Part shown: one piece after another, positions 5 through 60,881 of the stretch | How positions within the stretch are numbered: position 1 is the first letter of the stretch | Layout of the letters: the number at the start of each line of letters is the position of its first letter | Source of the DNA: Bacillota bacterium | Lineage (GTDB): Bacteria; Bacillota; SHA-98; UBA4971 | Direction: 5' to 3' | Assembly: GCA_014360195.1 (NCBI GenBank) | Contig: JACIXY010000001.1 | Coordinates: 305,714 to 369,713, forward strand | Length of the DNA: 64,000 nt | Translations under genes and position numbers: made by a program | The notes under the pieces: generated by a model | What the model was told of the DNA's origin: nothing | Databases searched by the model: none | The model's input: the letters and a program-made list of their open reading frames with translations, nothing else

Positions 5-50
5 GAGTGCAACACCGGCAGCCCCCGGAGAAGTGGTGGGGGTCTGTGGA
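5..50. repeat. Partial copy (3' core + right arm) of the dispersed palindromic MITE-like element, cut by the window edge
   Basis: GAGTGCAACACCGGCAGCCC followed by an arm resembling the right arm of the 4504-4696 copy (CCGGAGAAGTGGTGGGGG vs CTGGAAAAGTGGTAGAGA). Confidence 0.8.
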
Positions 51-97
51 TTCTTTCGGTGCTCAGGAAGTGCGTTCTCTTCTGGGGGGATCGATCG

Positions 98-1051
98 ATG
101 GATGGAACCGGACTCATAGTATCTTCGTCGCCGCATCAGCGGGCGGCCGTATCGACGCCGGTCATCATGAGTGATGTCATCCTCGCCCTCATGCCCGCTG
201 CCCTGGCCGGGGTATGGTTCTTCGGGCTCCGGGCGCTCGCCATGATGGTCGTGTGCGTGGCGGCGGCCGTCGGCACTGAGGCAGGTCTTGAAAAGCTCAT
301 GAAGAAGCCCGTAACTATTGAGGATTACAGCGCGGCTGTGGCAGGGTTCCTGCTGGCTCTCGTGCTACCGCCGGACCTGCCGCTCTGGATGGGCGCTATC
401 GGCGCTGCGTTCGCCATGGCAATAGCGAAGTTCATCTTCGGTGGGCTCGGGCAGAACATCTTCAACCCTGCGCTCATCGGGCGGGCCGTGCTGCTGGCCT
501 CGTGGCCGGTGTTCATGACGAGGTGGAGGTGGCCCATTTTCCAGGCGCCGTGGATACCGGATTTCGATGCGGTAAGCTCTGCAACCCCGCTCGCCCTCTG
601 GAAGCTCAATGGGATAAAGACGCCGTACCTAAACCTCTTCCTCGGCAACGTAGCAGGATCCATAGGGGAGACCTCGGCCCTTGCCATCCTGGTTGGTGCG
701 GCGTACCTGCTCTGGCGTGGTCATATTAGCTGGCGCATTCCGGTAAGCTTCATCGGAACGGTTGCGGTGCTTACGGCGCTCTTCGGTCAGGACCCGGTCT
801 TTCACGTGCTTGCGGGGGGTCTCTTGTTGGGCGCGTTCTTCATGGCCACGGATTATGTTACGAGCCCGGTCACTCCGAAAGGGCAGATCGTCTTCGGAGT
901 CGGGTGTGGTGTGCTGACGGTGTTCATCAGGCTATACGGCGGTTACCCCGAGGGCGTGTGCTATGCGATCCTGATCATGAACGCCGCCGCCGCTCTCATA
1001 GACAGGCTTACGGTGCCGCGCAAGTTCGGGGAGGTGAAGAAGGTTGCGTGA
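98..1051 (+). CDS. rnfD: Rnf electron transport complex subunit D
   Basis: SSSPH N-terminus, FGGLGQNIFNPAL, FMN site SSATPL, FMATDYVTSP; ATG 98 after GGGGGA. Confidence 0.95.
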   Translation: MDGTGLIVSSSPHQRAAVSTPVIMSDVILALMPAALAGVWFFGLRALAMMVVCVAAAVGTEAGLEKLMKKPVTIEDYSAAVAGFLLALVLPPDLPLWMGAIGAAFAMAIAKFIFGGLGQNIFNPALIGRAVLLASWPVFMTRWRWPIFQAPWIPDFDAVSSATPLALWKLNGIKTPYLNLFLGNVAGSIGETSALAILVGAAYLLWRGHISWRIPVSFIGTVAVLTALFGQDPVFHVLAGGLLLGAFFMATDYVTSPVTPKGQIVFGVGCGVLTVFIRLYGGYPEGVCYAILIMNAAAALIDRLTVPRKFGEVKKVA

Positions 1052-1640
1052 CGTGTTGAGGTTGGGTTTCATCCTCTTCGCGATATGCGCGGTGGCCGCG
1101 GGGGCGCTCGCGTTCGTGAACGACATCACTGAGGAGCGCATCGCGGCACAGGCCGCCATGAAGCTGGAGCAAGCGCTGGAAAGCGTGGTGCCGGGTGCAG
1201 AGGAGTTCAGGGACGAGACAGATAGAGTGCTGGCGCTAAAGGCTGCAGTGTCTGACGGGGGGAGGCCGGAGTTCCCGCTGATCAACAGGGTGTATGTGGG
1301 ATACGACAACGGGGAGATGGTGGGAACGGCATTCGCCTGCACTCCGTCCGGTTACGGCGGGCCTATCGACGCCGTGGTCGGCGTCTCACGCGATGGCGTC
1401 GTGACAGGGCTTACGGTGGTGAAACACACTGAGACCCCGGGGCTGGGCGCGAACATCACGAGCCGCGACTTCCAGATGCGCTTTGTCGGCCTGCGGGCAG
1501 GGATTCCAGTAAAGGTTACTAAAGACGGCGGTCAGGTGGAGGCCATCACCGGGGCGACGATCTCATCCAGGGCGGTCGCGAGCGCGGTTGACCAGGCGCT
1601 TCGGCTGTTCGAGCTCGTTACGCGAGAGGGGGTCTGGTGA
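1044..1640 (+). CDS. rnfG: Rnf subunit G (FMN-binding)
   Basis: N-terminal TM helix, GYGG, ETPGLG, flavinylation motif ITGATISS. Confidence 0.95.
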   Translation: MRDVLRLGFILFAICAVAAGALAFVNDITEERIAAQAAMKLEQALESVVPGAEEFRDETDRVLALKAAVSDGGRPEFPLINRVYVGYDNGEMVGTAFACTPSGYGGPIDAVVGVSRDGVVTGLTVVKHTETPGLGANITSRDFQMRFVGLRAGIPVKVTKDGGQVEAITGATISSRAVASAVDQALRLFELVTREGVW

Positions 1641-2270
1641 ATGAGCTTTAGGTCGGAGCTTACAAAGGGCCTTGTCAGGGAGAACCCTACTTTCAGGATC
1701 CTCCTTGGGATGTGCCCAACCATGGCAACTAGCCTTGCCATCTCCAATGGGATAGGCATGGGGATCGCAGCTACCTTCGTGCTCGTTGGGTCGAACGTGA
1801 TCGTGTCGATGCTGCGAAACGTCATTCCGTCGAGGATACGTATCCCCTGTTACATCGTGGTGATAGCGTCGTTCGTCACCATGGTGGATCTCATCATGGC
1901 CGCGTTCGTGCCGAAACTGCACGAGGTCCTCGGGATATTCATCCCGCTCATCGTCGTGAACTGCATCATCCTGGCGAGGGCCGAGGCGTTCGCGTCCAAG
2001 AACGGGGTGCTGTACTCGCTTGCTGATGGGATCGGCATGGGCCTCGGGTTCACCCTGGCCCTCACGGGGCTGAGCGCCATCAGGGAGCTCCTCGGGACCG
2101 GCACCCTCCTTGCGGTGCCGGACTTCGGGTTTCCCGGGTTCAGGATATTCGACCGCAGCCTTGCGGCGGTCATGGTGATTCTCCCTCCTGGGGGCTTCAT
2201 CACGCTAGGGCTTTTGATCGGCCTTCTCAACTCCCTGACCCGGCGGAAGAAGAAGGCGGCGCAGACATAA
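1641..2270 (+). CDS. rnfE: Rnf subunit E
   Basis: ENP..LLGMCP, FIPLIVVNC, LPPGGF. Confidence 0.95.
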   Translation: MSFRSELTKGLVRENPTFRILLGMCPTMATSLAISNGIGMGIAATFVLVGSNVIVSMLRNVIPSRIRIPCYIVVIASFVTMVDLIMAAFVPKLHEVLGIFIPLIVVNCIILARAEAFASKNGVLYSLADGIGMGLGFTLALTGLSAIRELLGTGTLLAVPDFGFPGFRIFDRSLAAVMVILPPGGFITLGLLIGLLNSLTRRKKKAAQT

Positions 2271-2305
2271 GGCCGGGCACAGGATCGTGACGGGAGGGAT
2301 ACTGC

Positions 2306-2905
2306 GTGGGCGAGATACTGGTGATATTCTTCGGCGGGGTGCTGCTCAACAACTTCATCCTGTCGAGGTTCCTCGGAATATGTCCGTTCATAGGCGTATC
2401 AAAGCAGGTCGAAACCGCGACCGGCATGGGCATGGCGGTTGTGTTCGTGATGGGCGTGGCATCTGTAGTGACCTGGATGGTCGAGCACTATATCCTGATG
2501 CCGCTGGGCCTCGGCTATCTCCGGACCATCGCCTTCATCCTCGTGATCGCCGCGCTCGTACAGCTTGTAGAAATGGTGATCCAGAAGGTAAGCCCGGTGC
2601 TGTACAAGGCCCTCGGGATCTACCTGCCGCTCATCACCACCAACTGCGCGGTGCTGGGAGTGGCGATTCTGAACATAACCGAGAAGTACAACCTGCTCGA
2701 GGCGGCGGTGAACGGTATCGCCGGCGCATCCGGGTTCACGCTGGCGATAGTCCTGTTCGCGGCGATAAGGGAGCGCATGGACCTTGCACCGATACCCGAG
2801 TCGCTGAAAGGCTTTCCCATGGCCCTCATAACGGCGGGCCTTATGTCCATCGCGTTCCTGGGGTTCGTCGGGTTCAGGCTGAAAGAGCTTTTCGGCGTCA
2901 TGTAG
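2306..2905 (+). CDS. rnfA: Rnf subunit A
   Basis: [30 protein letters not shown]. Confidence 0.95.
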
Positions 2906-2929
2906 GATTTCGCGAGGGGTGAGCAAGGG

Positions 2930-3757
2930 ATGATTTACCTTAAAGCGGTCCTTAGCCTCGGACTGATGGGGGCGGTATTTGGGCTTGCGCTTGCTCTCGC
3001 CGCGAAGAAGTTCGCGATCGAGCAGGACCCCAGGCAGGACAGGATTGTGGAGGTTCTTCCCGGTGCCAACTGCGGCGGGTGCGGCTTCCCCGGGTGCAGC
3101 GGTCTTGCAGCTGCAATCGTCGCCGAGAAGGCCCCTGTTGACGGGTGCCCCGTGGGTGGTCCCGCTGTGGCCGCGAAGGTTGCGGCCATCATGGGCGTGG
3201 AGGTCGGAGCGGCGAAAGAGAGAAAAGTGGCCAGGGTGCTGTGTCAAGGCAGCTCTGATAACTGTGGGTCGAGGTTCGTGTACGACGGCCTTTCCGACTG
3301 CAAGGCAGCGCAGCTTGTGGACGGCGGTGCGAAAGCGTGCGTGTACGGCTGCCTCGGCCTGGGGTCGTGCGTGGCGGCGTGCTCCTTCGATGCGCTGCAC
3401 ATGGGGCCTGATGGGCTTCCCGTGGTGGACGAGGAGGAGTGTACGTCCTGCGGAAGGTGCGTTGCGGCCTGCCCGAGGGGCATCATCCAGCTGGTCCCGG
3501 CAGCTCAGTCCGTGACGGTCCTTTGCAGGTCGTACGCGCGAGGCGCGGAGGTCCGCAAGACGTGCAAGGTCGGATGCATCGGGTGCGGACTGTGCGTGAA
3601 GGTGTGCCCGACCGGGGCTGTCACCGTAGAGAACAACCTTGCCGTCATTGACCCGGCGAAGTGCGACGCCTGCGGCAAATGCGTGGAGAAGTGCCCGACG
3701 AAGTGCATCGTGATGAAGGGTGCGAAGGCAAGCGCCGACGCCCTCGCGGCAAGCTAA
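2930..3757 (+). CDS. rnfB: Rnf subunit B (polyferredoxin)
   Basis: LPGANCGGCGFPGC plus several CxxCxxCxxxCP motifs. Confidence 0.95.
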   Translation: MIYLKAVLSLGLMGAVFGLALALAAKKFAIEQDPRQDRIVEVLPGANCGGCGFPGCSGLAAAIVAEKAPVDGCPVGGPAVAAKVAAIMGVEVGAAKERKVARVLCQGSSDNCGSRFVYDGLSDCKAAQLVDGGAKACVYGCLGLGSCVAACSFDALHMGPDGLPVVDEEECTSCGRCVAACPRGIIQLVPAAQSVTVLCRSYARGAEVRKTCKVGCIGCGLCVKVCPTGAVTVENNLAVIDPAKCDACGKCVEKCPTKCIVMKGAKASADALAAS

Positions 3758-4507
3758 GTGAGCATGAAGGACCGCGTTGAGAGAGGAAGGCCCGACCCGT
3801 ATTTCCTTGCGGGCGGGCCCACCGCGTGTCTTCTCATACACGGCTTCACCGGGTCACCTGCGGAGATGGCTCCAGTCGCGGAGTACCTTCAGAGCCGAGG
3901 CTTCACCGTCCACGCTCCTCTCCTCGCTGGCCACGGAACGACGCCGGAGGACATGGAGAAGACAGGATGGCGAGACTGGGTGCGAAGCGCGGAGGCAGGG
4001 TACGAGTTTCTTGCCGGACGTGCGGAACGCATCTATACGATCGGTCTGTCCATGGGCGGGCTGCTCGCCCTGCATCTTGCTGCAACGAAGCCCGTGGCTG
4101 GTGTCGTGGCCATGTGCGCGCCCATCCGCCTCAAAAAGCGCACTGCGCTTCTCGCACCCATCCTCCGGCACGTTGTTCGGTTCATCCCGAAAGGGTCGCC
4201 CGCGCCACCGTTTGCGGCCGATCTGTGGAGCTACGACCGCACGCCGGTTGCGTGCGTGCCGCACCTCCTGCGTCTTATCCGCATCGTCCGCCGCGAACTT
4301 GGGGCGATCTCGGCTCCGGCCCTCGTGGTCCAGGGCGCAGGCGACCAGACCGTCGATCCTGAAAGCGCCCGGTTCATAGTGGAGCATCTTGGATCGCGGA
4401 CAAAGAACCTCCTTATGCTGGCGAACTCTGGCCACCTGGTCACCCTCGACCAGGACCAGGGAACGCTCTTTTCCGCTATCGCGTCGTTTGTCTCCAGGAT
4501 AGCGTAA
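3758..4507 (+). CDS. Alpha/beta hydrolase, carboxylesterase (Est/YvaK-like)
   Basis: HGFTGSP, GLSMGG nucleophile elbow, D-x-x-V and SGH catalytic residues. Confidence 0.9.
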   Translation: MSMKDRVERGRPDPYFLAGGPTACLLIHGFTGSPAEMAPVAEYLQSRGFTVHAPLLAGHGTTPEDMEKTGWRDWVRSAEAGYEFLAGRAERIYTIGLSMGGLLALHLAATKPVAGVVAMCAPIRLKKRTALLAPILRHVVRFIPKGSPAPPFAADLWSYDRTPVACVPHLLRLIRIVRRELGAISAPALVVQGAGDQTVDPESARFIVEHLGSRTKNLLMLANSGHLVTLDQDQGTLFSAIASFVSRIA

Positions 4508-4696
4508 GTGCGGATTTAGAAGACATCACCAGTCTCCCAAAGGGTTTCAGGCTGCCGGTGCTTGCGCGAGGGGGCGTTGAAGATTTGGCAGGCCTCGACG
4601 CCAAATCTAACGAGGCGCCCCGCAAGGGCGCCGTCCCCCGAGCGCAACACCGGCAACCCCTGGAAAAGTGGTAGAGACCTTTGAACCCACACTTAG
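4504..4696. repeat. Palindromic MITE-like element, long core, diverged arms (193 bp)
   Basis: GTAAGTG...CACTTAG ends; inner IR GGCTGCCGGTG/CACCGGCAACC; two apical hairpins. Confidence 0.85.
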
Positions 4697-4920
4697 AGGT
4701 TTTTCTCCATCTTCCTGATGCTTTCGCGCGCGATGGCCTCCTCGCCTTTCTTCACCAGTCTCTTCACCATCTGGCCGCCGACCTTTCCGGCCTCCCTGAC
4801 GCTGGGTGCGTCGGGGTCTTTCATGTCGTCGGCCAGGCCGAGATGCTCCGCAGTCTCCCACTTCAGTCGATCAAGCTGTCGCAACGTTCTCAAACGGTCG
4901 TTGTTTTTCTTCCTTCCCAA
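4693..4920 (-). CDS. Small acid-soluble spore protein, alpha/beta type
   Basis: LKWETAEHLGL and REAGKVGGQMVKRLV motifs; RBS AAGGGAAGGAG. Confidence 0.85.
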   Translation of the reverse strand: MGRKKNNDRLRTLRQLDRLKWETAEHLGLADDMKDPDAPSVREAGKVGGQMVKRLVKKGEEAIARESIRKMEKNL

Positions 4921-5130
4921 ACTGTGCGCTCTCCTTCCCTTGCGTCCTTAGAGGCATCTCATCCTTATGATTGCCACATCCCGGGAACATATGACAGACC
5001 CTGTGCGGACACACGGCGAGCGGCCGGGGCCTGCCCCCGTTGCCGATGTGCTAGCCCAAATGGCTGCTTGTCAGGGTTTAGGAGAAGTGATACACTGTGT
5101 CCGGGAAATCCGTCGGGGGGTGCGATTCAG

Positions 5131-6246
5131 TTGAAGTGGGAGTACGGGCGCAGGCGAAGAGGGAGAAGGCAGCGATTGCTGGTCCTTTTTCTCATTCTTC
5201 TCCTGGGTGCTCTTACTGTTGCTGGTTATGCGCTTGTGAGGTTCGGCGTCCTCCCATGGCCGCAGAGGGCCACTACTGTGCACGGCGAAGGTGGCGGCAG
5301 GGTTGCGGGCACCGGCGCCGCTGAACCTGAGGAGTATGTGGAAAGCCAGTTCCTGATGGACACATATGTCAGTATACGGGCGTTCGGCCACGGGGCTAAA
5401 GACGCCGTTTCCGCGGCGTTCAACGAGATGCGCCGCATTGAGAGTCTCACGAGCAGGTTTGTTCCAACAAGTGATGTTTCCCGGGTGAACCAGGCGGCTG
5501 GCCTGGACCCCGTCCAGGTGAGCGATGAGACCTTCATGCTCCTCGAAAAAGCCCGAGAATGCTCGGACCTTTCCGGCGGAGCCTTCGACGTCACGATCGG
5601 GCCGGTGATCGACGCATGGGGTTTTGGCACTGAGAATCCCCACGTGCCGGACCCTGACGTCCTTGCGAAGGCCGTAGCCCTCGTGAACTTCCGTGCGGTG
5701 GAGCTTGACCCCGCCCAGAAAACGGTCAGGCTCGCCACTCCGGGTATGTCCATCGATCTCGGCGGCATCGCCAAGGGCTACGCGGCAGACCGGGCGGCTG
5801 CGGTGCTGCGGGAGCACGGAGTCAAGCACGCCCTCATTGATGCAGGTGGCAATATCGTCGCGGTGGGCTCCCGTCCTGACGGGAAACCGTGGCATATCGG
5901 GATAAGAGACCCGAGGGGCTCAAGCCCAACCGACACCATAGGCCCGGTGGTTGAGATAAGCGACGGAGCGGTCGTGACGTCCGGCGATTACGAGAGGTTC
6001 TTTGTCGAAGGCGAGCGGCGTTACCACCACATCTTTGATCCCAAGACGGGCAGGCCCGCGGATCGTGCGGAGAGCGTCACGATCATCGCACCAAACTCTG
6101 TTGATGCCGACATGCTTTCCACTGCAGTATTTGTTCTCGGCCCGTTGGAAGGGCCGAAGATCCTGGAAGGGCTCAACGGCGTCTCGGCGATGGTGGTCGG
6201 TGCCGATGGGCGACTTGTGTTCTCGCCCGGGTTCCCGGCGCATTGA
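5131..6246 (+). CDS. apbE: FAD:protein FMN transferase ApbE
   Basis: MDT, GAFDVTIGP, DLGGIAKGY, TSGDYER, HHIFDPKTG; N-terminal TM; start TTG 5131 inferred from RBS. Confidence 0.9.
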   Translation: MKWEYGRRRRGRRQRLLVLFLILLLGALTVAGYALVRFGVLPWPQRATTVHGEGGGRVAGTGAAEPEEYVESQFLMDTYVSIRAFGHGAKDAVSAAFNEMRRIESLTSRFVPTSDVSRVNQAAGLDPVQVSDETFMLLEKARECSDLSGGAFDVTIGPVIDAWGFGTENPHVPDPDVLAKAVALVNFRAVELDPAQKTVRLATPGMSIDLGGIAKGYAADRAAAVLREHGVKHALIDAGGNIVAVGSRPDGKPWHIGIRDPRGSSPTDTIGPVVEISDGAVVTSGDYERFFVEGERRYHHIFDPKTGRPADRAESVTIIAPNSVDADMLSTAVFVLGPLEGPKILEGLNGVSAMVVGADGRLVFSPGFPAH

Positions 6247-6303
6247 TGTCGCCCGAGCGATCTTTGAACTGGCACTTTATCAGCCAGGGGTGGGGATGCC
6301 ACA

Positions 6304-6942
6304 TTGAGGTTCGTTCTTGCGTCCGCGTCGCCTGCGCGGGCTGAACTCTTGCGGCAGATCGGGCTTCGCTTCGATGTTGTGCCAAGCGGGATAGCTGAAG
6401 ACATGGTCAATGGCAACGACCCCGGGGAAAGCGTCGCGGCCGTTGCTCTGGCCAAGGCACGCCACGTGGCGCGTAGCGAGCGCGACGCGGTGGTCATTGC
6501 GGCCGATACTGTCATCGTGCTTGACGGTGAGGTGCTCGGCAAGCCGGCGGACGCTGATGATGCTCGTAACATGCTTCGCCGAATGTCCGGGCGATGGCAC
6601 CAGGTGGCAAGCGGACTTGCGGTGGTGGATGCGCGTTCCGGACGCGAAGCCGCCTGCCACGAGGTCACCCTGGTGCGCATGGCGAGCCTCTCTGCGAGCG
6701 CTATTGACGGGTACGTGGGGACGGGCGAACCGCTTGGCAAGGCGGGTTCGTATGCCATACAGGGTCGAGGCGCGCTCTTTGTGGAGAGGATCTCCGGGTG
6801 CTACTTTAATGTGGTAGGCCTTCCCATCGCCCGGCTCGTGGATCTCGCCCGCGCCGTCGGCGTGGACCTCATGCGCGAAGCCTTCGGGGGGTATGGGGTA
6901 TGCGGGAGCACCCAGGGCAGCGACGATCCTCCTTCACGATGA
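6304..6942 (+). CDS. maf: Maf nucleotide pyrophosphatase
   Basis: LASASPAR, ADT, LGKP, KAGSYAIQG, NVVGLP. Confidence 0.95.
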   Translation: MRFVLASASPARAELLRQIGLRFDVVPSGIAEDMVNGNDPGESVAAVALAKARHVARSERDAVVIAADTVIVLDGEVLGKPADADDARNMLRRMSGRWHQVASGLAVVDARSGREAACHEVTLVRMASLSASAIDGYVGTGEPLGKAGSYAIQGRGALFVERISGCYFNVVGLPIARLVDLARAVGVDLMREAFGGYGVCGSTQGSDDPPSR

Positions 6943-7709
6943 AGGAAATGCCGGCACAAGAGCGACCCAGGGAACGCCTTCTCCGGGCGGGCCCCGAGGC
7001 GCTCTCTTCCGCGGAACTCGTGTCTATCATCCTCGGCACGGGCGTCCGCGGCCAGACAGCCCTCTCGCTTGCGGGCGCGGTCTTGCGCGCTTTCGGCGGC
7101 CTGCGTGGGATAGCGGCGGCTTCCACCCGCGACCTGGCCAGCCACAAGGGGATCGGGCCGGCCAAGGCGGTGCAGCTCAAGGCCGCCATGGAGCTGGGCA
7201 GGAGAGCCGTGACTCTCGAGCCGGAAGAGCTCGTCCAGGTGAGCGGGCCGCGCGATGTGGCGAGCCTTCTCATGGGCGAGATGCGCTACCTTGACAGGGA
7301 GCATTTCAGGGTGGTGCTGCTCAATGCGAAGCACCGGATCATAGACGTTGTGACGGTGTCCGTGGGGTGCCTCGACAGCTCGCTCGTTCACCCGAGGGAG
7401 GTGTTCAAGGAGTGCCTCAAGAGAAACTCCGCCTGCGTCATACTGGTGCACAATCACCCGAGCGGCGATCCGACGCCGAGCGGCGACGACATTGCAATAA
7501 CGCGCAGGCTGGCAAGCTCCGGTCTCATTCTCGGGATAGAAGTGCTTGACCACATAATTGTGGGAGACAACAGGTACTCAAGCCTTAAGGAACTCGGCCT
7601 CATGACACCCGCCACCGCGACTTGCTCGGGGGCATTGTCCTGGCACGAGCCCTGGCCGGGCCCAGCTGCCTGTGCTGCCGGAAGGGAGAATACGAGCTGT
7701 GATTCTTGA
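6900..7709 (+). CDS. radC: RadC family JAB-domain protein
   Basis: ERPRERL, VHPREVF, HNHPSGDPTPS, LDHII; start may be ATG 6939. Confidence 0.93.
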   Translation: MREHPGQRRSSFTMKEMPAQERPRERLLRAGPEALSSAELVSIILGTGVRGQTALSLAGAVLRAFGGLRGIAAASTRDLASHKGIGPAKAVQLKAAMELGRRAVTLEPEELVQVSGPRDVASLLMGEMRYLDREHFRVVLLNAKHRIIDVVTVSVGCLDSSLVHPREVFKECLKRNSACVILVHNHPSGDPTPSGDDIAITRRLASSGLILGIEVLDHIIVGDNRYSSLKELGLMTPATATCSGALSWHEPWPGPAACAAGRENTSCDS

Positions 7710-8748
7710 CCCTATCCTCGCCTTCTTTTCCAAGGATCTCGCCATTGATCTTGGGACCGCCAACTCCCTGGTTTACGTGAAGGGCAAAGGGGTCGTCATC
7801 CAGGAGCCGTCCGTGGTGGCGATCCGCAAAGACACAGGCGCCATTCTCGAGGTTGGGTCCGCCGCCAACCGCATGGTGGGCAGAACCCCTGGGAACATAG
7901 TGGTCGTGCGCCCGCTCAAAGACGGCGTCATAGCTGACTTCGACGTGACCGAGATGATGCTCCGCCATTTCATCGTCCGGGCGCACAGGGGGCGTGCAGT
8001 CGTTCGGCCGAGAGTTATCATAGGAGTGCCGTCAGGTGTGACCGAAGTAGAGAGGCGGGCCGTGATCGATGCGGCGCTCCAGGCAGGGGCTCGTGAGGCG
8101 CACCTCATCGAGGAGCCTCTCGCGGCTGCCATCGGCGCCGGTCTTCCCGTCTTTGAGCCTTCGGGCAACATGGTGGTGGATATCGGCGGAGGCACCACGG
8201 AGATAGCCGTGATATCCCTTGGGGGAATCGTGGCCTCAAGGTCCATTCGCATCGCAGGGGATGAGATGGACGAGGCCATAGTGCAACATGTCAAGAAGGT
8301 CTACAATCTTGTAATCGGGACCAGGACAGCCGAAGAGATCAAGAAGCAGATCGGGTCGGCATGCCCCCGGCACCCAGAGGCTACCATGGAGGTAAAGGGC
8401 AGGGATATGGTATCTGGCCTGCCGAAGACCGTGCGTATCTCCGCAGGCGAGGTCGAGGAGGCGCTCCGGGAGCCCATCGGGGCCATCGTCGAGGCTGTGA
8501 AGATGACTTTAGAGAGAACGCCGCCCGAGCTTTCCGCGGACATCATCGACAAGGGGATCGTTGCTTCAGGCGGTGGCTCTCTTCTAGAGGGCATCGAACA
8601 GGTGCTTGCGGATTCCACGGGTATGCCGGTGCACCGCGCCGACGAGCCTCTCACGTGCGTCGTGAGGGGCGCGGGCAAGGCCCTCGAGGAAATGGATCGC
8701 TACCGGCGGATGCTTACGAGCTCATCGCGGATCGGACAGAGAAGCTGA
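7699..8748 (+). CDS. mreB: Rod shape-determining protein MreB
   Basis: DLAIDLGTAN, EPLAAAIGAG, DIGGGTTE. Confidence 0.97.
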   Translation: MILDPILAFFSKDLAIDLGTANSLVYVKGKGVVIQEPSVVAIRKDTGAILEVGSAANRMVGRTPGNIVVVRPLKDGVIADFDVTEMMLRHFIVRAHRGRAVVRPRVIIGVPSGVTEVERRAVIDAALQAGAREAHLIEEPLAAAIGAGLPVFEPSGNMVVDIGGGTTEIAVISLGGIVASRSIRIAGDEMDEAIVQHVKKVYNLVIGTRTAEEIKKQIGSACPRHPEATMEVKGRDMVSGLPKTVRISAGEVEEALREPIGAIVEAVKMTLERTPPELSADIIDKGIVASGGGSLLEGIEQVLADSTGMPVHRADEPLTCVVRGAGKALEEMDRYRRMLTSSSRIGQRS

Positions 8749-8750
8749 CT

Positions 8751-9671
8751 ATGGCTGGCAGGGGTGACGCGCCTGTGCAGCAGGAGCCCAACGGCAAGCG
8801 CTACGGAGTTGCAATGGTTGCAATATTGCTGCTGCTTGTGGCGCTCCTTTTCGTGACCTCCGGCGAAAGGGAGTCGTTATCGCCGCCGGAGAGCGCCGTG
8901 CGTGAGGTGCTCGCGCCTTTGGAAAGGGTCTTTTTCCGCGTGGCAAGCGAGATAAGCGGGGCTGTGCACACCGTCGCGAACCTGCGGCACCTTGTTCGCG
9001 AGAATGACCGACTGTACCTTGAGATATCGCGCTTGATGGCGGAGAACGCCCGACTTGAAGAGTACAGGCTCGAGAACACACGCCTGCGGAAGCTGCTGGA
9101 TTTCCAGGCCACCCTCGACTACCCGACGTGCGCCGCGCAGATCGTGGGCAGGGATCCGGGCAACTGGCTCGGGACGGTTACCATCAACAAAGGGACGCGC
9201 CATGGCGTCAGGAAGAACATGGCTTGCGCGACCATGGAGGGACTCGTGGGCAGGGTGCTGTCAACGACCCCGCGCACCGCGACCGTGCTGCTCATCCTCG
9301 ATCCCAGGAGCGCGGTGGGAGGCATGGTGCAGCGCACAAGGACCCTCGTCCTACTGGAGGGGGATCCCGCGAGACCGGGCCTTTGCCTTGTGAAGTCCCT
9401 CACCCCGGAGTGCGACGTGCAGGTGGGAGACAGGGTGCTCTCATCGGGGCTGGGTGGCGTCTATCCGAAGGGCCTGGTCATCGGGGAGATCGTGGAGGTA
9501 ATGCCGGGAAAGTATGGCGTCGGGAGAGCGGCGTACCTCAAGCCAGCTGTCGACTTCGCCCGGCTTGAAGAAGTTCTGGTTATTACTCGCAGTCCCGAGC
9601 CCGCGGGGGTCCCGGCGGAGGCTCGTGCTCAGACTCCGGGACAGTCGCCGGAGGAGGCGGCACAGCAGTGA
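8751..9671 (+). CDS. mreC: Rod shape-determining protein MreC
   Basis: TM + coiled coil (ENxRLRKLL), GLVGRV, SGLGGVYPKG. Confidence 0.93.
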   Translation: MAGRGDAPVQQEPNGKRYGVAMVAILLLLVALLFVTSGERESLSPPESAVREVLAPLERVFFRVASEISGAVHTVANLRHLVRENDRLYLEISRLMAENARLEEYRLENTRLRKLLDFQATLDYPTCAAQIVGRDPGNWLGTVTINKGTRHGVRKNMACATMEGLVGRVLSTTPRTATVLLILDPRSAVGGMVQRTRTLVLLEGDPARPGLCLVKSLTPECDVQVGDRVLSSGLGGVYPKGLVIGEIVEVMPGKYGVGRAAYLKPAVDFARLEEVLVITRSPEPAGVPAEARAQTPGQSPEEAAQQ

Positions 9672-10177
9672 AGCATCTTCTCTTGCTCTGCGCTGGCACG
9701 CTCCTTGTTGTGCTCGAGACAACCGTGGCCCCGTTCGTGGCGATCCGGGGTGTGAAGCCGGATCTGGTGTTAGTCCTGGTGGTGCTTGTGGGAATGCTTT
9801 CCGGGTGGAAAGACGCGGCACTCGTCGGCCTTTTCACGGGCTTCATCGAAGATGCGTGTTCGGGGCAGTTCCTGGGGCTTTTCATGCTCACCCGCACGGT
9901 CGTGGGCATCGGGGCGGGCCTCTCATACGCGAGAGTGTTCCAGGACCGCGTCATCGTGCCGATTGCCCTGGTCTTCCTCGGTGGGGTCGTCGGAGGAGGG
10001 CTGCACAGCTTCCTGTTGTCGTCCTTCGGGGTACCTCTGCCACTTTCCTTGGCGACCTTTCGGGTGGTCCTGGTGCAGGCGCTGTACTCGGCGGTGCTTG
10101 CACCGATCCTTCTCAAGGGGGTCACCCGGCTAGACCTGTACGTGAGGCGGGCGTCCGAGCGCCGCCAGGCCCTCTAA
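9668..10177 (+). CDS. mreD: Rod shape-determining protein MreD
   Basis: Hydrophobic, KPDLVLV, GFIED motif, operon position. Confidence 0.9.
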   Translation: MKHLLLLCAGTLLVVLETTVAPFVAIRGVKPDLVLVLVVLVGMLSGWKDAALVGLFTGFIEDACSGQFLGLFMLTRTVVGIGAGLSYARVFQDRVIVPIALVFLGGVVGGGLHSFLLSSFGVPLPLSLATFRVVLVQALYSAVLAPILLKGVTRLDLYVRRASERRQAL

Positions 10178-10299
10178 GTTAGGGTGCGTTAATTCTTGTC
10201 CGTCTTCCAGTAGTCGCCGGGTTGCCAGTGACCCAAGGAGAGAGTGCAACACCGGCAACCCCTCCCAAGAGTCGGGAGCATTTCTGCACTCTCACTTAG
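10174..10299. repeat. Palindromic MITE-like element, short core, arms B/A (126 bp)
   Basis: CTAAGTTAGGGTGC...GCACTCTCACTTAG; core GGGTTGCCAGTG-ACCC-AAGGAGA-GAGT-GCAA-CACCGGCAACCC. Confidence 0.92.
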
Positions 10300-10347
10300 G
10301 CGCGGAGGCTTGCGCAAGAACGGCGGGAAGCGACCAGGGGGGAGATC

Positions 10348-12393
10348 ATGCCCGAATCCCCAGCGCAGAACAGGCTGAAACACCTTAGTTTCGTGGTCCT
10401 CGCGGTGCTCGTGGTTCTTGCTTCGCGTCTCTGGCACCTCCAGATCATGCGGGGCGACGTGTACGAGGCGTTGTCGCGGGGCAACAGGGTGCGCGTGATC
10501 CCGGTCCCGGCACCGAGAGGAAAGATACTCGACCGCCATGGCGTGCCCCTCGCAACCAGCCGCATGGCGTTTTCCGTGTCCATTGTGCCTCAAGACGTGC
10601 CTGACATGGAGGCAACGGTCGCGCGCCTTGCTTCCATCCTCGGCATATCCCCGGCGAACATCAGAGAAAAGCTCGCCGCCCCGAGGCGGCCTTTCGAGCC
10701 TGTGAGGCTCAAAACAGACGTGGACCCCGCCGTGGTGACGGCAATAGGCGAGCAGCGCACCGACCTTCCAGGGGTGGTCATCGAAGAGATCCCGGTGCGT
10801 AGCTACGTCTATGGTGACTTCGCAAGCCATCTCATCGGTTTCATAAGAGAGATCGATTCATCCGAGCTGAAGTTGTATAGAGACAAGGGCTACCGATCTG
10901 GCGACCTCATAGGCAAGGTGGGGGTCGAGAGGACCTTCGAGGAATACCTCCGCGGTGTCGATGGCGGGGAGCAGGTGGAAGTCAACAGCCTCTCTCAGCC
11001 CATCAAGGTGCTGGGAAGCCTTGCGCCCATCCCCGGAAACGACGTGGTGCTCACCATCGACCAGAAGGTCCAGGCCGCAGCCGAGCGCGCCCTCTCGGAG
11101 CAGTTGCAGGAGCTTTCCAAATCGCCGAAGACCAGGGGTGCAAAGGCCGGGGCGGTCATCGCCATGGACCCGAGAACCGGCGAGATACTTGCCATGACCA
11201 GCAAGCCTTCGTACGACCCCAACATGTTTGTCGGCGAGGTATCCGCCGAAGAGCTCAACTTTCTTTCATCAACGCCGAGCCCGCAACCGAACCGGGTGAC
11301 CAGCCACACCTATCCTCCAGGGTCGGCGTTCAAGGTCGTAACCGCGCTTGCGGCGCTCGAACGTCACAAGGTCACGATGGACGACAGGTTCGTATGCACC
11401 GGCCGCGACCCCCAGTCGGGGAAGATGTGCTGGACCGTCGAGCGCGGTAGGGGCCATGGCAAGCAGGACCTGGTCGCAGGGATCGCAAACTCGTGCAACA
11501 TCGTGTTCTACGAACTGGGGCGGCGAGTCGGCATCGACGATCTGGCGATGTACGCCAGGATGTTCGGCTTCGGGCGACCCACCGGGATTCAGCTCTTTCC
11601 AGGTGACGCATCAGGCCTTGTGCCTGACCGCGCCTGGAAACGGCTGAACTTCAAGGGTTACGATCAGATATGGTACCCAACGGAAACGCTCGATGTTGCC
11701 ATCGGACAGGGGGCCCTCCTCGTCACACCGCTCCAAGTCGCGAACGCGTACGCGACCATCGCCGCCGGCGGGATCATGCACGTGCCGATGGTCGCCCGGG
11801 CCGTGCTCACGCCCGACGGAAAGGTCATCCGCGAATTCGCGCCGAAAGTGGCCGGGAGCGTCAATGTATCCCGGGAGTCTTTTGACATCCTCAAGCAAGG
11901 ACTTGCAAAGGTCGTCTCGGAGGGCACCGCCGCCGGGGCTTTCAAGGGGTTCCCGGTTCCGGCGGCAGGCAAGACGGGCACCGCGCAGAACCCCAGGGGC
12001 GACAGCCACGGGTGGTTCGCGGGGTTCGCGCCTCTGGACGGCCCGGAGATAGTCGTCGTGGTCCTGGTGGAACACGGGACCAGCGGGTCGCTGGCCGCAG
12101 CGCCTGTCGCGAGAAAGGTGATGGAGGCATATTTCGGGCTCGACCAGAAACAGCCTGAAGCGCCAGGCTCCGGCACGGCTCCCGGACCGGCCGGGGACTC
12201 CCGGGACCAGGTCGTGCGTCCCGCCGATGAGACGGGCGGCACGATTCCAACACCTGGGACAAACCAGGAGGCGAAAGCCCCGGGTGAGGTGCCCGGTGAG
12301 TTGCCCGATGAGGTGCCCGACGGCTCGGCCGCCTCGCACCAGGGGCCCGGAGGCATCCCTTCACCTGAGGTTGGGCGGTTACCGGCCCCGTGA
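10348..12393 (+). CDS. mrdA: Penicillin-binding protein 2 (class B)
   Basis: PRGKILDR, SAFK (SxxK), SCN (SxN), KTGT; Pro/Gly-rich tail. Confidence 0.93.
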   Translation: MPESPAQNRLKHLSFVVLAVLVVLASRLWHLQIMRGDVYEALSRGNRVRVIPVPAPRGKILDRHGVPLATSRMAFSVSIVPQDVPDMEATVARLASILGISPANIREKLAAPRRPFEPVRLKTDVDPAVVTAIGEQRTDLPGVVIEEIPVRSYVYGDFASHLIGFIREIDSSELKLYRDKGYRSGDLIGKVGVERTFEEYLRGVDGGEQVEVNSLSQPIKVLGSLAPIPGNDVVLTIDQKVQAAAERALSEQLQELSKSPKTRGAKAGAVIAMDPRTGEILAMTSKPSYDPNMFVGEVSAEELNFLSSTPSPQPNRVTSHTYPPGSAFKVVTALAALERHKVTMDDRFVCTGRDPQSGKMCWTVERGRGHGKQDLVAGIANSCNIVFYELGRRVGIDDLAMYARMFGFGRPTGIQLFPGDASGLVPDRAWKRLNFKGYDQIWYPTETLDVAIGQGALLVTPLQVANAYATIAAGGIMHVPMVARAVLTPDGKVIREFAPKVAGSVNVSRESFDILKQGLAKVVSEGTAAGAFKGFPVPAAGKTGTAQNPRGDSHGWFAGFAPLDGPEIVVVVLVEHGTSGSLAAAPVARKVMEAYFGLDQKQPEAPGSGTAPGPAGDSRDQVVRPADETGGTIPTPGTNQEAKAPGEVPGELPDEVPDGSAASHQGPGGIPSPEVGRLPAP

Positions 12394-12619: not shown

Positions 12620-12665
12620 CCGTACCACCCGAATGGGGCTTTGGAGGAGGCGTGCGCGGCTGCCC

Positions 12666-53024: not shown

Positions 53025-54047
53025 ATGGAGACAATGGGAGCGGCATACGCGTTTTTGATCCTGCCTGTCCTTATCATCGTCGGTTTGCTCATCCTGCTGA
53101 ACTTCGTGCCGGTGGGGCTCTGGGTATCCGCGTGGGCGGCCGGGGTGCACGTGGGCATCTTCACCTTAGTGGGGATGCGCTTGCGCCGGGTTCCGCCGGG
53201 GCGGATCATCCTGCCGCTCATCAAGGCGGTGAAGGCCGGCCTTCAAGTGAGCGTGGACAAGCTGGAGGCGCACTTCCTTGCCGGAGGCAACGTCGACCGT
53301 GTGGTTGACGCGCTCATCGCGGCCCAGCGGGCGGAGATCAATCTGTCGTTCGAGCGGGCGTGCGCCATAGACCTTGCGGGCAGAAACGTTCTGGAGGCCG
53401 TTCAGATGAGCGTGAATCCGAAGGTGATCGAGACGCCCGTGGTGGCTGCGGTCGCGAAGGACGGCATCGAGCTCAAGGCCAAGGCCCGGGTGACGGTGCG
53501 CGCCAACATCGACAGGCTCGTTGGCGGCGCGGGTGAGGCCACCATCATCGCGAGGGTCGGCGAAGGCGTGGTGACAACTGTGGGCTCGGCCGAAAGCCAC
53601 AAGGAGGTGCTGGAGAACCCCGACAAGATCTCCCGCACCGTGCTGAGCAAAGGCCTCGACGCGGGCACCGCCTTCGAGATACTTTCCATCGACATAGCCG
53701 ACGTGGACGTCGGAAGGAACATCGGCGCGCAACTACAGATGGACCAGGCCGAGGCCGACAAGAACATCGCACAGGCGAAGGCTGCCGAGCGGAGGTTCGC
53801 AGCGCTTGCGCGCGAGCAGGAGATGAAGGCGCAGGTTCAGGAAATGCGCGCAAGGGTGGTCGAGGCGGAGGCCGAGGTCCCGAAGGCGCTTGCGGAGGCG
53901 CTCCGCTCGGGCAAGCTTGGAGTCCTCGATTACTACCAGTTGCAAAACGTGCTGGCCGACACGCGCATGAGACAGTCTATAGCAAGTGTCAGCGAACCGC
54001 GGGAGCCCGTTGATGCGCCGCCCGCTGAAGACGAGAAAAAGAAGTGA
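53025..54047 (+). CDS. floA: Flotillin-like protein FloA (YqfA)
   Basis: [42 protein letters not shown]. Confidence 0.95.
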
Positions 54048-54054
54048 TGATCTG

Positions 54055-54666
54055 ATGGATGCCATTTTCGGGCTTCTGTTTCTGCTCTATATGGTTGCCG
54101 TGGCCATAGCGGCCGTCTCAAAGGGGCGCCAGGGGAAGACCAGAGGCGCGGGCGCCCCGTGGCCCCGGATACCGCCGCTGGAGGCGCCGGGGACAGGGAC
54201 CGGCGCGGGCGTGCCGGCGAGCCCCGCTGTCGGCCCGGTGGCGTCCGAGGCCGAGGACGATATGACGGTGCAGCCCGGCCGCGCCCTCGAAGCCCGTCCG
54301 GAACCTCCGGCTTCCGAGGGGTCGGCCGCGACGCACCCGGTGTACCAGCGGGCCCCTGAGGAGACACGTGGGCGCGGGACGCGTCGGCGCTCGCCCGAGG
54401 AGTGGTTCTCTGAAGAAGGCCTTAGCCTGGAATGGGCGGAGGCTGGGGCATGGGGGACGGACAGGAGACCGGGCCGCCTCTCCGCGTCTTCAAAGCGCCG
54501 CGTCAGCGCATCGACCGAGGACCGCCGGGGGCGGCGCGACCTGCCCGAGGCGCGGGCTGCTACGGACATCATAGGCGAACTCGGCCCCGAGGAGCTCGTG
54601 CGCGCGATGGTGCTGGCTGAGGTGCTGGGCCCTCCCCGTGCCCTTAGACGCAGAATCAGGCTCTGA
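54055..54666 (+). CDS. Hypothetical protein (YqfB position)
   Basis: N-terminal TM, low-complexity middle, C-terminal AMVLAEVLGPPRA. Confidence 0.75.
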   Translation: MDAIFGLLFLLYMVAVAIAAVSKGRQGKTRGAGAPWPRIPPLEAPGTGTGAGVPASPAVGPVASEAEDDMTVQPGRALEARPEPPASEGSAATHPVYQRAPEETRGRGTRRRSPEEWFSEEGLSLEWAEAGAWGTDRRPGRLSASSKRRVSASTEDRRGRRDLPEARAATDIIGELGPEELVRAMVLAEVLGPPRALRRRIRL

Positions 54667-54719
54667 GTGAGGGTGCAGAAGCGCTTCCGACTTTTGGGAG
54701 GGGTCGCCGGTGACTCAAA
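54663..54719. repeat. 3'-truncated copy of the palindromic element (arm A + start of short core)
   Basis: CTGAGTGAGGGTGCAGAAGCGCTTCCGACTTTTGGGAGGGGTCGCCGGTGACTCAAA. Confidence 0.88.
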
Positions 54720-54797: not shown

Positions 54798-54937
54798 CTA
54801 AGTATGAGGTCATTAGTTTTCTCTCGTTTTCCGAGGTCTTGGGTTGCCGGTGACTCAAAGAGAGAGTGCAACACCGGCAGCCCTGCACGGCGCGTGCGCT
54901 CTCTGGAACTGGCGATTACTTATGGCGATCTACTTAG
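54798..54937. repeat. Palindromic element, short core, C-like left arm and divergent right arm (140 bp)
   Basis: CTAAGTA...TACTTAG ends; core GGGTTGCCGGTGACTCAAAGAGAGAGTGCAACACCGGCAGCCC. Confidence 0.85.
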
Positions 54938-59778: not shown

Positions 59779-59810
59779 GCCATACGCTCGTCTGCATGGA
59801 GGGGTCGTGC

Positions 59811-60305
59811 GTGCCTGTTGAGATCGTGAACCTTCAGGACAGGATCGAGATCACCGGGGAGCTTTTAGCCGCACTGGATCGCGCGGTGACGGTCGGGCTT
59901 GCCCGCGAGGGAATGGACCCCGTGGGGGTCGAGGTGAGCATAGCCCTTCTGGATGACGAGCGAATCCGCGAACTCAACAGGAAGTTCCGCGGGAAGGACA
60001 CGCCCACTGACGTGCTGTCCTTCGGAATGGATGACCAGGACGTGCCGGAGGATGTGGCCATCCTCGGCGACATAGTGATCTCGCTGGAGACGGCCGCTCG
60101 CGAGGCACCGGAGACGGGAGGCCTTACCCGCCATGTGGTGGTCCTCGCCATCCACGGTCTTCTGCATCTCCTCGGGTACGATCACGAGAACGACGAGGAT
60201 GCCGAGGAGATGGAGGCCCACGAGCGGGAGATCCTGGCGGAGGTCGCCCTGCCTGCCGCCACGGGTGGGGCTCCCGCCTGTCACGAGGGGAGTGACGGCC
60301 GGTGA
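59811..60305 (+). CDS. ybeY: rRNA maturation endoribonuclease YbeY
   Basis: PTDVLSF, LGDIVIS, HGLLHLLGYDH. Confidence 0.95.
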   Translation: MPVEIVNLQDRIEITGELLAALDRAVTVGLAREGMDPVGVEVSIALLDDERIRELNRKFRGKDTPTDVLSFGMDDQDVPEDVAILGDIVISLETAAREAPETGGLTRHVVVLAIHGLLHLLGYDHENDEDAEEMEAHEREILAEVALPAATGGAPACHEGSDGR

Positions 60306-60685
60306 AGACCAGGTCGCTCGGAGAGAGCTTTCGCTGCGCTGTGCAGGGCGTGAAGGCTGTGCTCTCCACCGAGCGCAACATGCGCATTCATTTCATCGCG
60401 GCCGCCTCTGTGCTGGCGGCCGCGGGTGCCCTCAGGGTATCGATGGTCGAGCTTGCGTGCCTCGCCCTTGCCATCGCCCTCGTCCTCATATGCGAGCTTG
60501 CTAACACTGCCCTCGAGCTCATCTGTAATATAGCCTGCCCTGCCTGGGAAATTCGGGTCAAGACCGTGAAGGACATAGCCGCGGGCACGGTGCTCGTAAG
60601 CGCGGCATGGGCGACCGTCGTGGGTGCCGCGGTCCTCGGGCCGAAACTTGTCCCCGTGGCCCGCGCCCTGCTCCGCCTCCTCTAA
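60302..60685 (+). CDS. dgkA: Diacylglycerol/undecaprenol kinase family
   Basis: ERNMRIH, ELANTALE, KDIAAG. Confidence 0.9.
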   Translation: MKTRSLGESFRCAVQGVKAVLSTERNMRIHFIAAASVLAAAGALRVSMVELACLALAIALVLICELANTALELICNIACPAWEIRVKTVKDIAAGTVLVSAAWATVVGAAVLGPKLVPVARALLRLL

Positions 60686-60881
60686 GTGAGGGTGCGAAAA
60701 TGCTTCCAGTTTTTTCGGAGGGGTTGCCGGTGATTGCACGAGAGGTGTCAAAATCCGGCCACTTGCCCGACGGGCCGGATTTTGGCGAGGCGCGCCCCGC
60801 TTGGGGCGCCGTCCCCGAGTGCAACACCGGCAACCCGGCAACTACTGGGAAAGGGACAAGGACTGACGCACCCTCACTTAG
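60682..60881. repeat. Palindromic MITE-like element, long core, arms A/B (200 bp)
   Basis: Perfect terminal IR CTAAGTGAGGGTGCG / CGCACCCTCACTTAG; inner IR GGGTTGCCGGTG/CACCGGCAACCC. Confidence 0.95.

Follow-up and report, generated by a model that had tools for sequence, protein, structure and literature searches.

Between the genes of the 64,000-nt stretch of DNA analysed here (the window), a palindromic repeat recurs 12 times. The initial annotation read these repeats as a lineage-specific, non-autonomous family mobilized in trans, recognized no named family in them and proposed them as a candidate undescribed system. What kind of element are they, what could move them, and are they new?

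Census and architecture of the repeats

A blastn search of the whole genome, with the eight complete window copies as queries, returned exactly the 12 window loci that had been annotated, at -22..37, 4504–4696, 10174–10299, 12494–12619, 15720–15747, 23362–23488, 27689–27879, 36018–36216, 41645–41761, 54663–54719, 54798–54937 and 60682–60881. In the assembly (3.38 Mb, 161 contigs) we counted 351 element loci, amounting to 1.4% of its length, in line with the predicted hundreds of copies per genome. These loci have the traits of MITEs, being small, non-coding as read and dispersed in many copies; units span 126–213 nt, with size modes near 126, 140, 199 and 213 nt. Within the window, the outer motif AGTGAGGGTGC (at most one mismatch) occurs nine times against 1.48 expected, a count reached in none of 100 shuffles, and the inner motif GGGTTGCCGGTG is present at 19 places where 0.82 would be expected, a number likewise unmatched in 100 shuffles. 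One of these 19 inner-motif matches, at 48136, falls outside every copy. The 12 copies are listed below.

5–50, no strand: right part of a degenerate long-core copy (core end, inner repeat and decayed arm) that starts ~70 nt before the window
4504–4696, no strand: complete 193-nt copy with long core and arms of a third type (GTAAGTGCGG... / ...CCCACACTTAG); the alpha/beta-hydrolase gene at 3758–4507 takes its stop codon from the copy's terminal TAA
10174–10299, minus strand: complete 126-nt copy with a short core between a left B1 and a right A arm; the core is inverted compared with the most frequent layout
12494–12619, plus strand: complete 126-nt copy in the PBP2/minC gap, with a short core between a left A and a right B1 arm
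15708–15776, minus strand: core-less 69-nt derivative, a B2 arm fused to an A arm
23362–23488, minus strand: complete 127-nt copy upstream of obg, with a short core between a left B1 and a right A arm
27689–27879, plus strand: complete 191-nt copy with long core and A-like arms on both sides, in the comEA/comEC gap; comEA ends on its TAA
36018–36216, minus strand: complete 199-nt copy with a long core between a left B2 and a right A arm; its degenerate end CTGAGT gives the frame at 35146–36021 its TGA stop
41648–41761, plus strand: truncated copy upstream of hrcA that retains the 3' two-thirds of a long core and a B3 arm with the end ...CAGTTAG
54663–54719, plus strand: truncated copy that keeps an A arm, the inner repeat and 7 nt from the start of a short core
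54798–54937, plus strand: complete 140-nt short-core member of the C/D-arm subfamily; these arms bear the long core in a sister genus
60682–60881, plus strand: complete 200-nt copy with a long core between a left A and a right B1 arm; dgkA (60302–60685) ends on its TAA

Each copy consists of a B-type arm (~45 nt) and an A arm (~38 nt) joined by a GC-rich palindromic core. Both arm types start with an 11–14-nt terminal inverted repeat (AGTGAGGGTGC-like); window copies read CTA-AGTGAGGGTGC ... GCACCCTCACT-TAG, and end logos from 100 elements agree. The arms, which the initial annotation had called variable, sort into discrete types (A, B1, B2, B3, C, D and a few more), A being paired nearly always with a B type and C with D. 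The core takes one of two forms, a 43-nt hairpin or a three-helix structure of ~116 nt, and the short form is no simple deletion of the long one.

Both core forms occur on every arm type in near-equal numbers (short/long: A/B1 38/33, A/B2 12/12, A/B3 3/4, C/D 13/16), and the core is flipped in a minority of copies. At one orthologous locus (L075), the copies of the sister genome G006 and of the host genome (G000) have common right-arm variants, which are confined to one and two places in G000, yet carry a short core in one and a long core in the other. Since both forms appear on every arm type and the core changed in place at an ortholog, copies exchange parts, and at least one orthologous insertion has switched core form in place. 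Gene conversion, or repair of an excision gap from another copy, would be the likely route. A rank-based comparison of arm orthology in these two genomes was too noisy to tell re-insertion from conversion at two loci (L052 and L068).

Five candidate solo cores gave no sign of a core moving by itself. Three of them (L_C74, L_C85 and L_C92) lack MITE-family coverage and look like chance pairs of the 12-mer, one (L_C1_96740) could at best be a core in advanced decay, and another is a copy with decayed arms.

Insertion into CTAG and presence among relatives

Insertion can be read directly where one genome is filled and the other empty. At two such loci (L071 and L056), G000 has ...CTAG... and G006 has ...CTA[AGTGAGG...CCCACT]TAG..., with the TA duplicated at both; the empty sites at L070 and L048 are one or two bases off CTAG. 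Of the 351 loci, 100 have ends that satisfy strict criteria; among these, 86 have C before the TA and 89 have G after it, and no base preference was seen farther out. The outer C...G that had been drawn into the element, as (c)TA...TA(g), is therefore part of the target CTAG. This tetranucleotide has the lowest ratio of observed to expected counts of all tetranucleotides in the genome (2233 observed versus 11 708 expected from base composition), and is likewise scarce in the window (27 versus 141).

Because the element ends read TAA inward, insertion into a C-TAG stop codon retains a stop. Among 100 elements, in-frame ends close an open frame of at least 100 codons in 52 cases, compared with a mean of 31 in the two other frames, a modest enrichment. 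All 12 window copies are intergenic and lie within conserved gene clusters, which upholds the annotated placement between genes with at most a stop codon overlapped; six (4504, 10174, 27689, 36018, 54663 and 60682) share bases with the stop codon that closes the open frame upstream. The gaps that hold copies are PBP2/minC, rodA/M23 peptidase, L21../obg, comEA/comEC, ABC permease/holA, ../hrcA, ../yabP-yqfD and dgkA/... The TAA-inward ends and the rarity of CTAG probably account for the dense intergenic placement, the frequent stop-codon sites and the re-use of sites. The transposon would be tied to the rarest tetranucleotide of its host, and its intergenic sites appear close to full and re-used.

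Presence differs between sister species, and clean empty sites exist; the pattern that the initial annotation named as speaking against mobility, identical presence at all orthologous loci, was not observed. Across the five sister-species regions compared, four window copies are missing from one or more. Copy 10174 is found in G006 and missing from G004 and G001. Copy 12494 is found in G006 and missing from G001, G002 and G007, and in G004 a copy with a long core lies a few bases off; two sequencing runs (X17 and X18) also yielded contigs that link 12496 to 12620 without copy 12494. Copy 15708 is common to G006 and missing from G007, and copy 36018 is missing from G004 and G002; for G002 and G007 these are statements of presence or absence, their intergenic DNA being too diverged for insertion junctions to be read. 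Near-identical twins (at least 98% identity) also occur (14 of 215 copies with a full-length partner; maximum 99.5%).

The repeats add an abundant, recently active MITE family to the little-studied uncultured high-GC Bacillota. DNA contigs of two runs stop inside each copy, and contigs ending inside element copies explain breaks in assemblies of these organisms. Element copies could also serve as strain markers.

A candidate parent clade and competing readings

IS630-type insertion sequences offer the closest counterpart to the repeat ends. One element in G020 (L011, 883–2025) and another on a metagenome contig (L186) have the boundaries CTA/AGTTAG...AACT/TAG (slashes mark the element boundaries), and two left ends read CTA/AGTGAAAGTGC (L187) and CTA/AGTAAGAGTTC (L028); all four left ends and both right ends found in this clade have the CTA...TAG flanks. 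The proteins of these elements score 187 and 155 bits on the NF033545 'IS630 family transposase' model (cut-off 100) and also match DDE_3. The nearest IS ends agree with the MITE terminal repeat at 8–10 of 12 positions (L187 at 10 of 12) and have alignable subterminal arms, B-type arms giving the best alignments to IS left ends and A arms to IS right ends. The shuffle test covers the L187 left end, whose best arm score of 16 exceeds those of all 200 shuffles (mean of best scores 8.3, sd 1.75, maximum 15).

The IS630-clade relatives with similar ends, which are candidate parents, belong to other genera of the same class or to an organism of 51% GC. A metagenome scan with the G019 transposase gave three loci, among them L187, whose end comes closest; this element is cut by its contig end and sits in 51% GC DNA unlike G000. 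A search for the IS left-end pattern across the class (22 genomes) identified G019, G020 and G021, plus one place in G001 that proved to be no IS end.

Searches nearer the repeats fit the annotated picture of elements that have no transposase nearby, are non-autonomous and would be mobilized in trans. No IS630-family transposase was detected in the fragmented G000 assembly by DDE_3, NF033545 or tblastn, and no intact one in eight other genomes of the genus, likewise fragmented assemblies. Fragments 70% identical to the transposase of the candidate parent clade are present in two of these eight; the IS630 fragments in G002 and G006 were rejected as partners, having neither ends nor adjoining MITE sequence. 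An autonomous element was sought in G000 among 16 opposed terminal-motif pairs 400–3000 nt apart, and the 12 examined are neighbouring MITEs flanking ordinary frames. Four of ten sub-threshold NF033545 matches in G000 were examined and are HTH regions of rve/Mu-type and ISNCY transposases. PF01359 (mariner) had no match anywhere, control genomes included.

IS630 itself targets CTAG. The TA duplication within CTAG and the likeness of the arms to IS630-family ends, which point to a parent family not visible to the initial annotation, place the repeats among IS630/Tc1-mariner-type MITEs. From these comparisons of sequence, we consider it highly probable that the repeats are MITEs built from both ends of IS630-type insertion sequences (the B-type arm from the left end, the A arm from the right) and inserting at the TA of CTAG, the palindromic core occupying the place of the transposase gene. 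An IS630-type transposase supplied in trans would bind both ends and excise the element, which would then be inserted at the TA of another CTAG, giving rise to the duplication observed.

Two other enzymatic routes deserve weighing. Intergenic, palindromic, very abundant and mosaic copies are also what one would expect of REP/BIME-like palindromes spread by a RAYT (HUH, IS200-like) enzyme; however, REPs are 20–40 nt long and leave no duplication, whereas the units here measure 126–213 nt and have terminal inverted repeats and a target duplication. With Y1_Tnp also unmatched in the genome, in a search whose control was positive in 6 of 14 reference genomes, this origin is barely conceivable. The absence of an IS630 transposase from the assembly despite near-identical twins could instead suggest that another transposase family (e.g. 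an IS5-group enzyme, or the resident rve or ISNCY type) moves the elements and that the likeness to IS630 ends is convergent. The genome does have rve/Mu-type and ISNCY transposases, and a Pseudomonas MITE described as possibly IS5-derived inserts at CTAG (PMC3189936). That element, as described there, duplicates 4 bp, in contrast to the 2 bp (TA) duplicated here; no MITE-type end (up to three mismatches) lies within 3.3 kb around the ISNCY gene, and IS630-clade elements of the same class have the same CTA...TAG flanks and similar ends. A different transposase family is therefore very improbable.

The structure of the repeats invites a reading in which they are primarily structured RNA modules (terminators, mRNA stabilizers or operon processing sites) and their spread is secondary. 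Folded as single-stranded DNA, the 200-nt copy at 60682–60881 reaches -64.2 kcal/mol (z = -8.6) and a 126-nt copy -29.5 kcal/mol (z -5.1). Conservation is higher in the core stems than in the loops, and 111 double compensatory changes were counted, compared with 29.9 in shuffles (sd 4.7); these pair counts use the minimum-energy fold of the majority sequence, a choice that favours this structure. This excess could mean selection on structure; 60 of the 111 changes fall in four pairs and look like inherited subfamily variants, and RNAalifold on 118 long cores gave almost no consensus pairs. Copies inside conserved operons fit an RNA role as well, as do RNA-library contigs that run into copies, a kind of evidence that cannot show transcription. 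Against it, single changes leaving G.U on the strand examined (158) do not outnumber those leaving A.C (175) and so reveal no strand asymmetry, arms and cores occur in both orientations with respect to each other and to flanking genes, the hairpin has no T run after it, and target duplication with empty sites marks a transposon. The sole Rfam match in the window at gathering score is a tRNA (26707–26779), and a relaxed search (E up to 1) of a 3.2-kb locus found nothing inside the 200-nt copy (locus positions 1501–1700), its lone match (E 0.37) lying outside at locus positions 936–969. We regard a primarily RNA-level element as highly improbable; any importance of the core most likely lies in the DNA itself, and nothing points to an RNA function.

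Within the IS630-derived MITE reading, a further conjecture, itself unlikely, is that selection maintains the core, rather than its being passive filler, as a module that moves between MITE lineages by in-place conversion and serves transposition or the operons. If so, the core might fold both ends together for a transposase arriving occasionally on a phage, a plasmid or in a neighbouring genome, and the family would stay mobile in genomes lacking the cognate enzyme. The exchange of cores between copies, including the change of form at an orthologous site, and the tie of the element to CTAG are both worth a specialist's look and leave the classification unaffected.

Comparison with known systems

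The annotated lack of a named family holds against both sources consulted: the repeats have no Rfam match, and a full-text literature search (without supplements) found no description of them, its matches to the motifs being unrelated. The stronger proposal of an undescribed system does not stand, since the TA duplication and IS630-like ends assign the repeats to a known kind. The family is new and the kind of element well known, its closest relatives in type being RUP and the Correia elements. Its significance is accordingly modest, a new MITE family for which a likely parent, an IS630 clade, can be named.

IS630-family insertion sequences duplicate TA, as the repeats do, and the clade members found here have the same CTA...TAG flanks; unlike them, the window elements encode nothing, a palindromic core replacing the coding region. 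MITEPsy1 of Pseudomonas syringae, as far as its description in PMC3189936 goes, is also a MITE of ~100 nt that inserts at CTAG, but it duplicates 4 nt and is assigned to IS5, whereas the window elements duplicate 2 nt (TA).

RUP, the repeat unit of pneumococcus, is described in PMC2229807 as a MITE proposed to be moved by IS630-Spn1 and present in 108 copies. By that description, RUP and the window repeats are both non-coding, ~100–200 nt long, intergenic and present in at least 100 copies, with IS630-like terminal repeats and insertion at TA, a likeness of kind. The repeats differ from RUP in their host, a high-GC uncultured member of the Bacillota, in having two core forms and several arm types, in targeting the full CTAG, in their number (351 loci in 3.4 Mb versus the 108 copies given for RUP) and in that searches of their own genome did not recover the candidate parent IS.

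The Correia (NEMIS) elements of Neisseria, again as presented in PMC2229807, have TA termini with target duplication, short and long forms differing by an internal segment, several related subtypes and dense intergenic copies, all of which recur here; their transcripts fold as long stem-loops. In Correia elements the long form arises from the short one by a 50-bp insert that carries an IHF site, whereas here the two cores are not related in this simple way. Unlike the Correia elements, the repeats described here can be given a named candidate parent IS family.

Copies, arms, and cores

The initial annotation described eight complete and four partial copies of a repeat in the window, and the sequences match that description. 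The repeat is a MITE, a small non-coding element with two arms (main types A, B1, B2, B3, C, and D) around a palindromic core. A blastn census of the whole assembly, G000 (3,377,583 bases, 161 contigs), with the eight complete copies as queries recovered exactly the same 12 loci in the window. Genome-wide, its 2242 hits merged into 351 loci covering 46,762 bases (1.38% of the assembly), bearing out the claim of hundreds of copies per genome, with size modes near 126, 140, 199, and 213 nt. The window has 9 occurrences of the outer motif (1.48 expected) and 19 of the inner motif (0.82 expected), counts attained in 0 of 100 shuffles. Of 241 inner-repeat pairs in the genome (≤ 2 mismatches), 103 enclose the short core, a 43-nt hairpin (41–45 nt overall), and 123 the long core of about 116 nt (108–124 nt); at least three of the long pairs are chance pairings of the 12-mer.

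The arms, taken initially to be variable, are discrete modules rather than free variation. In the commonest arrangement, an A arm precedes the core and a B-type arm (B1, B2, or B3) follows it. C and D arms mark another subfamily, with elements of 140 and 213 nt, and other arm types accompany variant long cores, as in window copy 4504. Among 221 elements with both flanks available, arms were flipped relative to the core in 16 and formed chimeric pairs in 5 (D/B1, A/D, C/B1, B1/B1, and A/A); the remaining elements have one or both arms unclassified.

Arm pairs and core forms among the 221 elements
A/B1: short core 38, long core 33
A/B2: short core 12, long core 12
A/B3: short core 3, long core 4
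C/D: short core 13, long core 16
B1/A (flipped): short core 6, long core 5
B2/A (flipped): short core 2, long core 1
D/C (flipped): short core 0, long core 2

The majority long core folds into an 18-bp outer stem with two inner hairpins (−83 kcal/mol, RNA parameters), and single-stranded DNA folding gives z-scores of −8.6 for a 200-nt and −5.1 for a 126-nt window copy. The derivative at 15708–15776 measures 69 nt and consists of a B2 arm joined directly to an A arm, the entire core being gone; because the sister species G006 has it too, this is an old deletion and no assembly effect. DNA contigs of sequencing runs X2 and X10 stop inside every copy within window positions 1–20000 (near 4582–4618, 10270–10279, 12517–12591, and 15718–15746), so the repeats evidently break up short-read assemblies of this organism.

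Target site and mobility

We compared G000 with its closest sister species, G006 (about 93% identity over a syntenic 20 kb), using 41 fetched G006 stretches with 49 MITE loci. For 31 of these loci the two flanks could be placed on a single G000 contig; for the other 18 they could not.

State in G000 of the 31 mapped G006 loci
More than 100 nt and of equal size in both genomes: 17 (one inverted)
Short fragments common to both: 2
Copy missing from G000: 5
Half-deleted in G000: 1
Ambiguous case: 1
Unequal size: 5

Junctions are readable for four of the five copies missing from G000, the fifth (L078) lying in diverged DNA. At L071 and L056, G000 reads CTAG where G006 reads CTA[element]TAG, and at L070 and L048 the empty sites in G000 are one or two bases off CTAG. 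These filled and empty junctions define the element as AGT...ACT, the duplication as TA, and the target as CTAG. Flank logos from the 100 of 351 loci passing strict end criteria agree, with C before the TA in 86, G after it in 89, and no preference further out.

The comparison of orthologous loci proposed in the initial annotation thus yielded clean empty sites and presence that differs between sister species, and window copies behave likewise. Copy 10174 is found in G006 and missing from G004 and G001; copy 12494 is found in G006 and missing from G001, G002, and G007; copy 36018 is missing from G004 and G002, and copy 15708 from G007. Near the site of 12494, G004 carries a copy with a long core; once reconstructed, its empty site differs from the G001 sequence by one base. 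Contigs of runs X17 and X18 link position 12496 to 12620, a single other letter separating the two; RNA processing cannot be seen in contigs, and the plain reading is a copy-less allele in a strain differing by 3–8%. At the site of 10174, G007 has an unrelated 139-nt spacer starting CCTAAGTA, which may be a relic of another element.

Nearest-neighbor identity has a median of 90.3% for the 215 of 264 copies with a full-length partner, and 14 copies have a twin at ≥ 98% identity (highest 99.5%), indicating that the family moved, or underwent conversion, recently.

CTAG is scarce in this genome, with 2233 occurrences against 11,708 expected from base composition, the lowest ratio among all tetranucleotides; the window holds 27 (141 ± 11 in shuffles) beside its 12 element loci. 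Since the element ends read TAA inward, a TAG stop codon preceded by C stays a stop after insertion. Copies had been said to overlap a stop codon at most, and 6 of the 12 window copies indeed share bases with the stop codon that ends the upstream frame. Across the genome, 46 elements out of 100 terminate an open frame of at least 100 codons at one end or at both; 52 ends do so in frame, whereas the other two frames average 31, a modest excess in a GC-rich genome. Open frames adjoining copies at 9514–10179, 41150–41611, and 53986–54663 have no Pfam match at 1e-5.

Exchange of parts and the role of the core

Four sites occupied in both G000 and G006 hold dissimilar elements.

Shared sites with dissimilar elements
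L068: short versus long core
L075: short versus long core, the G000 copy with an additional 70-nt insert in an arm
L052: same element type but inverted (87% identity after reverse complementing)
L064: different arm type

The G000 copy at L075 (contig C81, about 27784–28077) has a long core, and its insert of about 70 nt, absent from G006, is unrelated sequence in the B arm. The two genomes have right-arm variants in common at this site that G000 as a whole shows in just 1 and 2 places, so this is an orthologous insertion that has changed its core in place. At L052 and L068, where a rank test of arm likeness gave a noisy result, either conversion or re-insertion at a scarce site may have occurred. 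Given that each main arm type carries both core forms and that arm chimeras are rare, we infer patch-wise conversion, or gap repair templated by other copies, which fits better than single crossovers.

Selection on a transcribed core would be expected to leave strand asymmetry, but one-sided stem changes among 115 distinct long cores leave G.U (158) about as often as A.C (175). Double compensatory changes amount to 111, where 300 shuffles give 29.9 ± 4.7 and at most 45; the fold used for scoring comes from the same consensus, a choice that favors the structure, and 60 of the 111 are concentrated in four pairs, apparently as variants inherited within subfamilies. The Rfam search suggested earlier gave no match. 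In our view the core is a palindrome at the DNA level that the transposon carries along, any function being putative.

Candidate parent, distribution, and known relatives

The initial annotation saw no transposase nearby and proposed a check for IS630 or HUH genes. G000 has no match to DDE_3 or Y1_Tnp, nothing above the cut-off for NF033545 (ten weak hits), and no tblastn hit to an IS630-clade transposase. The four weak hits examined correspond to the HTH parts of rve/Mu-type and ISNCY transposases. A gene for a 474-aa ISNCY-family transposase (L196:550–1974; NF033594, 409 bits), about 155 kb upstream of the window on contig C1, has no MITE-type ends within 3.3 kb. Another multi-copy G000 element, unrelated to the MITE (C100:52–1559, C77:5885–6622, C80:40978–41677, and C75:10641–10945), is 68–76% identical to a flank of metagenome locus L188.

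DDE_3 matches occur in 9 of 41 related genomes. In G020, from another family of the class, a 1143-bp element is bounded by CTA|AGTTAGTGTCC...AACT|TAG, and a relative in G019 keeps the left end CTA|AGTAAGAGTTC while its right end has decayed; NF033545 places both proteins in the IS630 family (187 and 155 bits, cut-off 100). Of the eight other genomes of the genus, two contain fragments at 70% identity to the IS630-clade transposase, with stops and without ends. Three loci came from a metagenome scan, among them L186, a complete relative flanked by CTA...TAG, and L187, whose left end CTA|AGTGAAAGTGC agrees with the MITE at 10 of 12 positions but which lies in DNA of 51% GC, unlike G000. Among all 287 trimmed arms, B-type arms gave the best alignments to left IS ends, and A arms to the L186 right end; in the shuffle control, performed for the L187 left end, its best score of 16 exceeds all 200 shuffles (maximum 15, mean 8.3, sd 1.75). 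From these alignments, the MITE looks like both ends of such an IS630-family element with the core in place of the gene. IS630 itself targets CTAG and duplicates TA.

With a 200-nt copy as query, 19 of the 41 related genomes matched (E ≤ 0.001).

Matches to the 200-nt copy
Other genomes of the genus: 8/8
Two sister genera: 1/1 and 6/8
Another family of the class: 2/2
Elsewhere: one weak hit

In one sister genus, the matches span the core of the query only; 9 of 11 copies fetched from it have clear C and D arms with a long core, and most are flanked by CTA and TAG or by close variants. A 24-nt core word, matched exactly, is present in at least 88 stretches from MAGs whose records name a Bacillota, Firmicutes, or Clostridia bacterium, and also in contigs (L098, L101, L110, and others) of one ‘Betaproteobacteria bacterium’ MAG, a label that looks out of line. 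DNA near-identical to 4 kb of the window (share ≥ 0.73) is present in 8 runs of 4 oil-field or oil-production metagenome studies, and one of these runs, X2, is about 99% like the window over long contigs.

Full-text searches of the literature gave no description of this MITE family, which is itself new, although elements of its kind are already known. One of the nearest is a Pseudomonas MITE that likewise goes into CTAG sites but with a 4-nt duplication, and that has been attributed to IS5 (PMC3189936). The others are the RUP elements of pneumococcus, which share IS630-like ends and a TA target, and the Correia elements, which share TA, short and long forms, and subtypes (PMC2229807).
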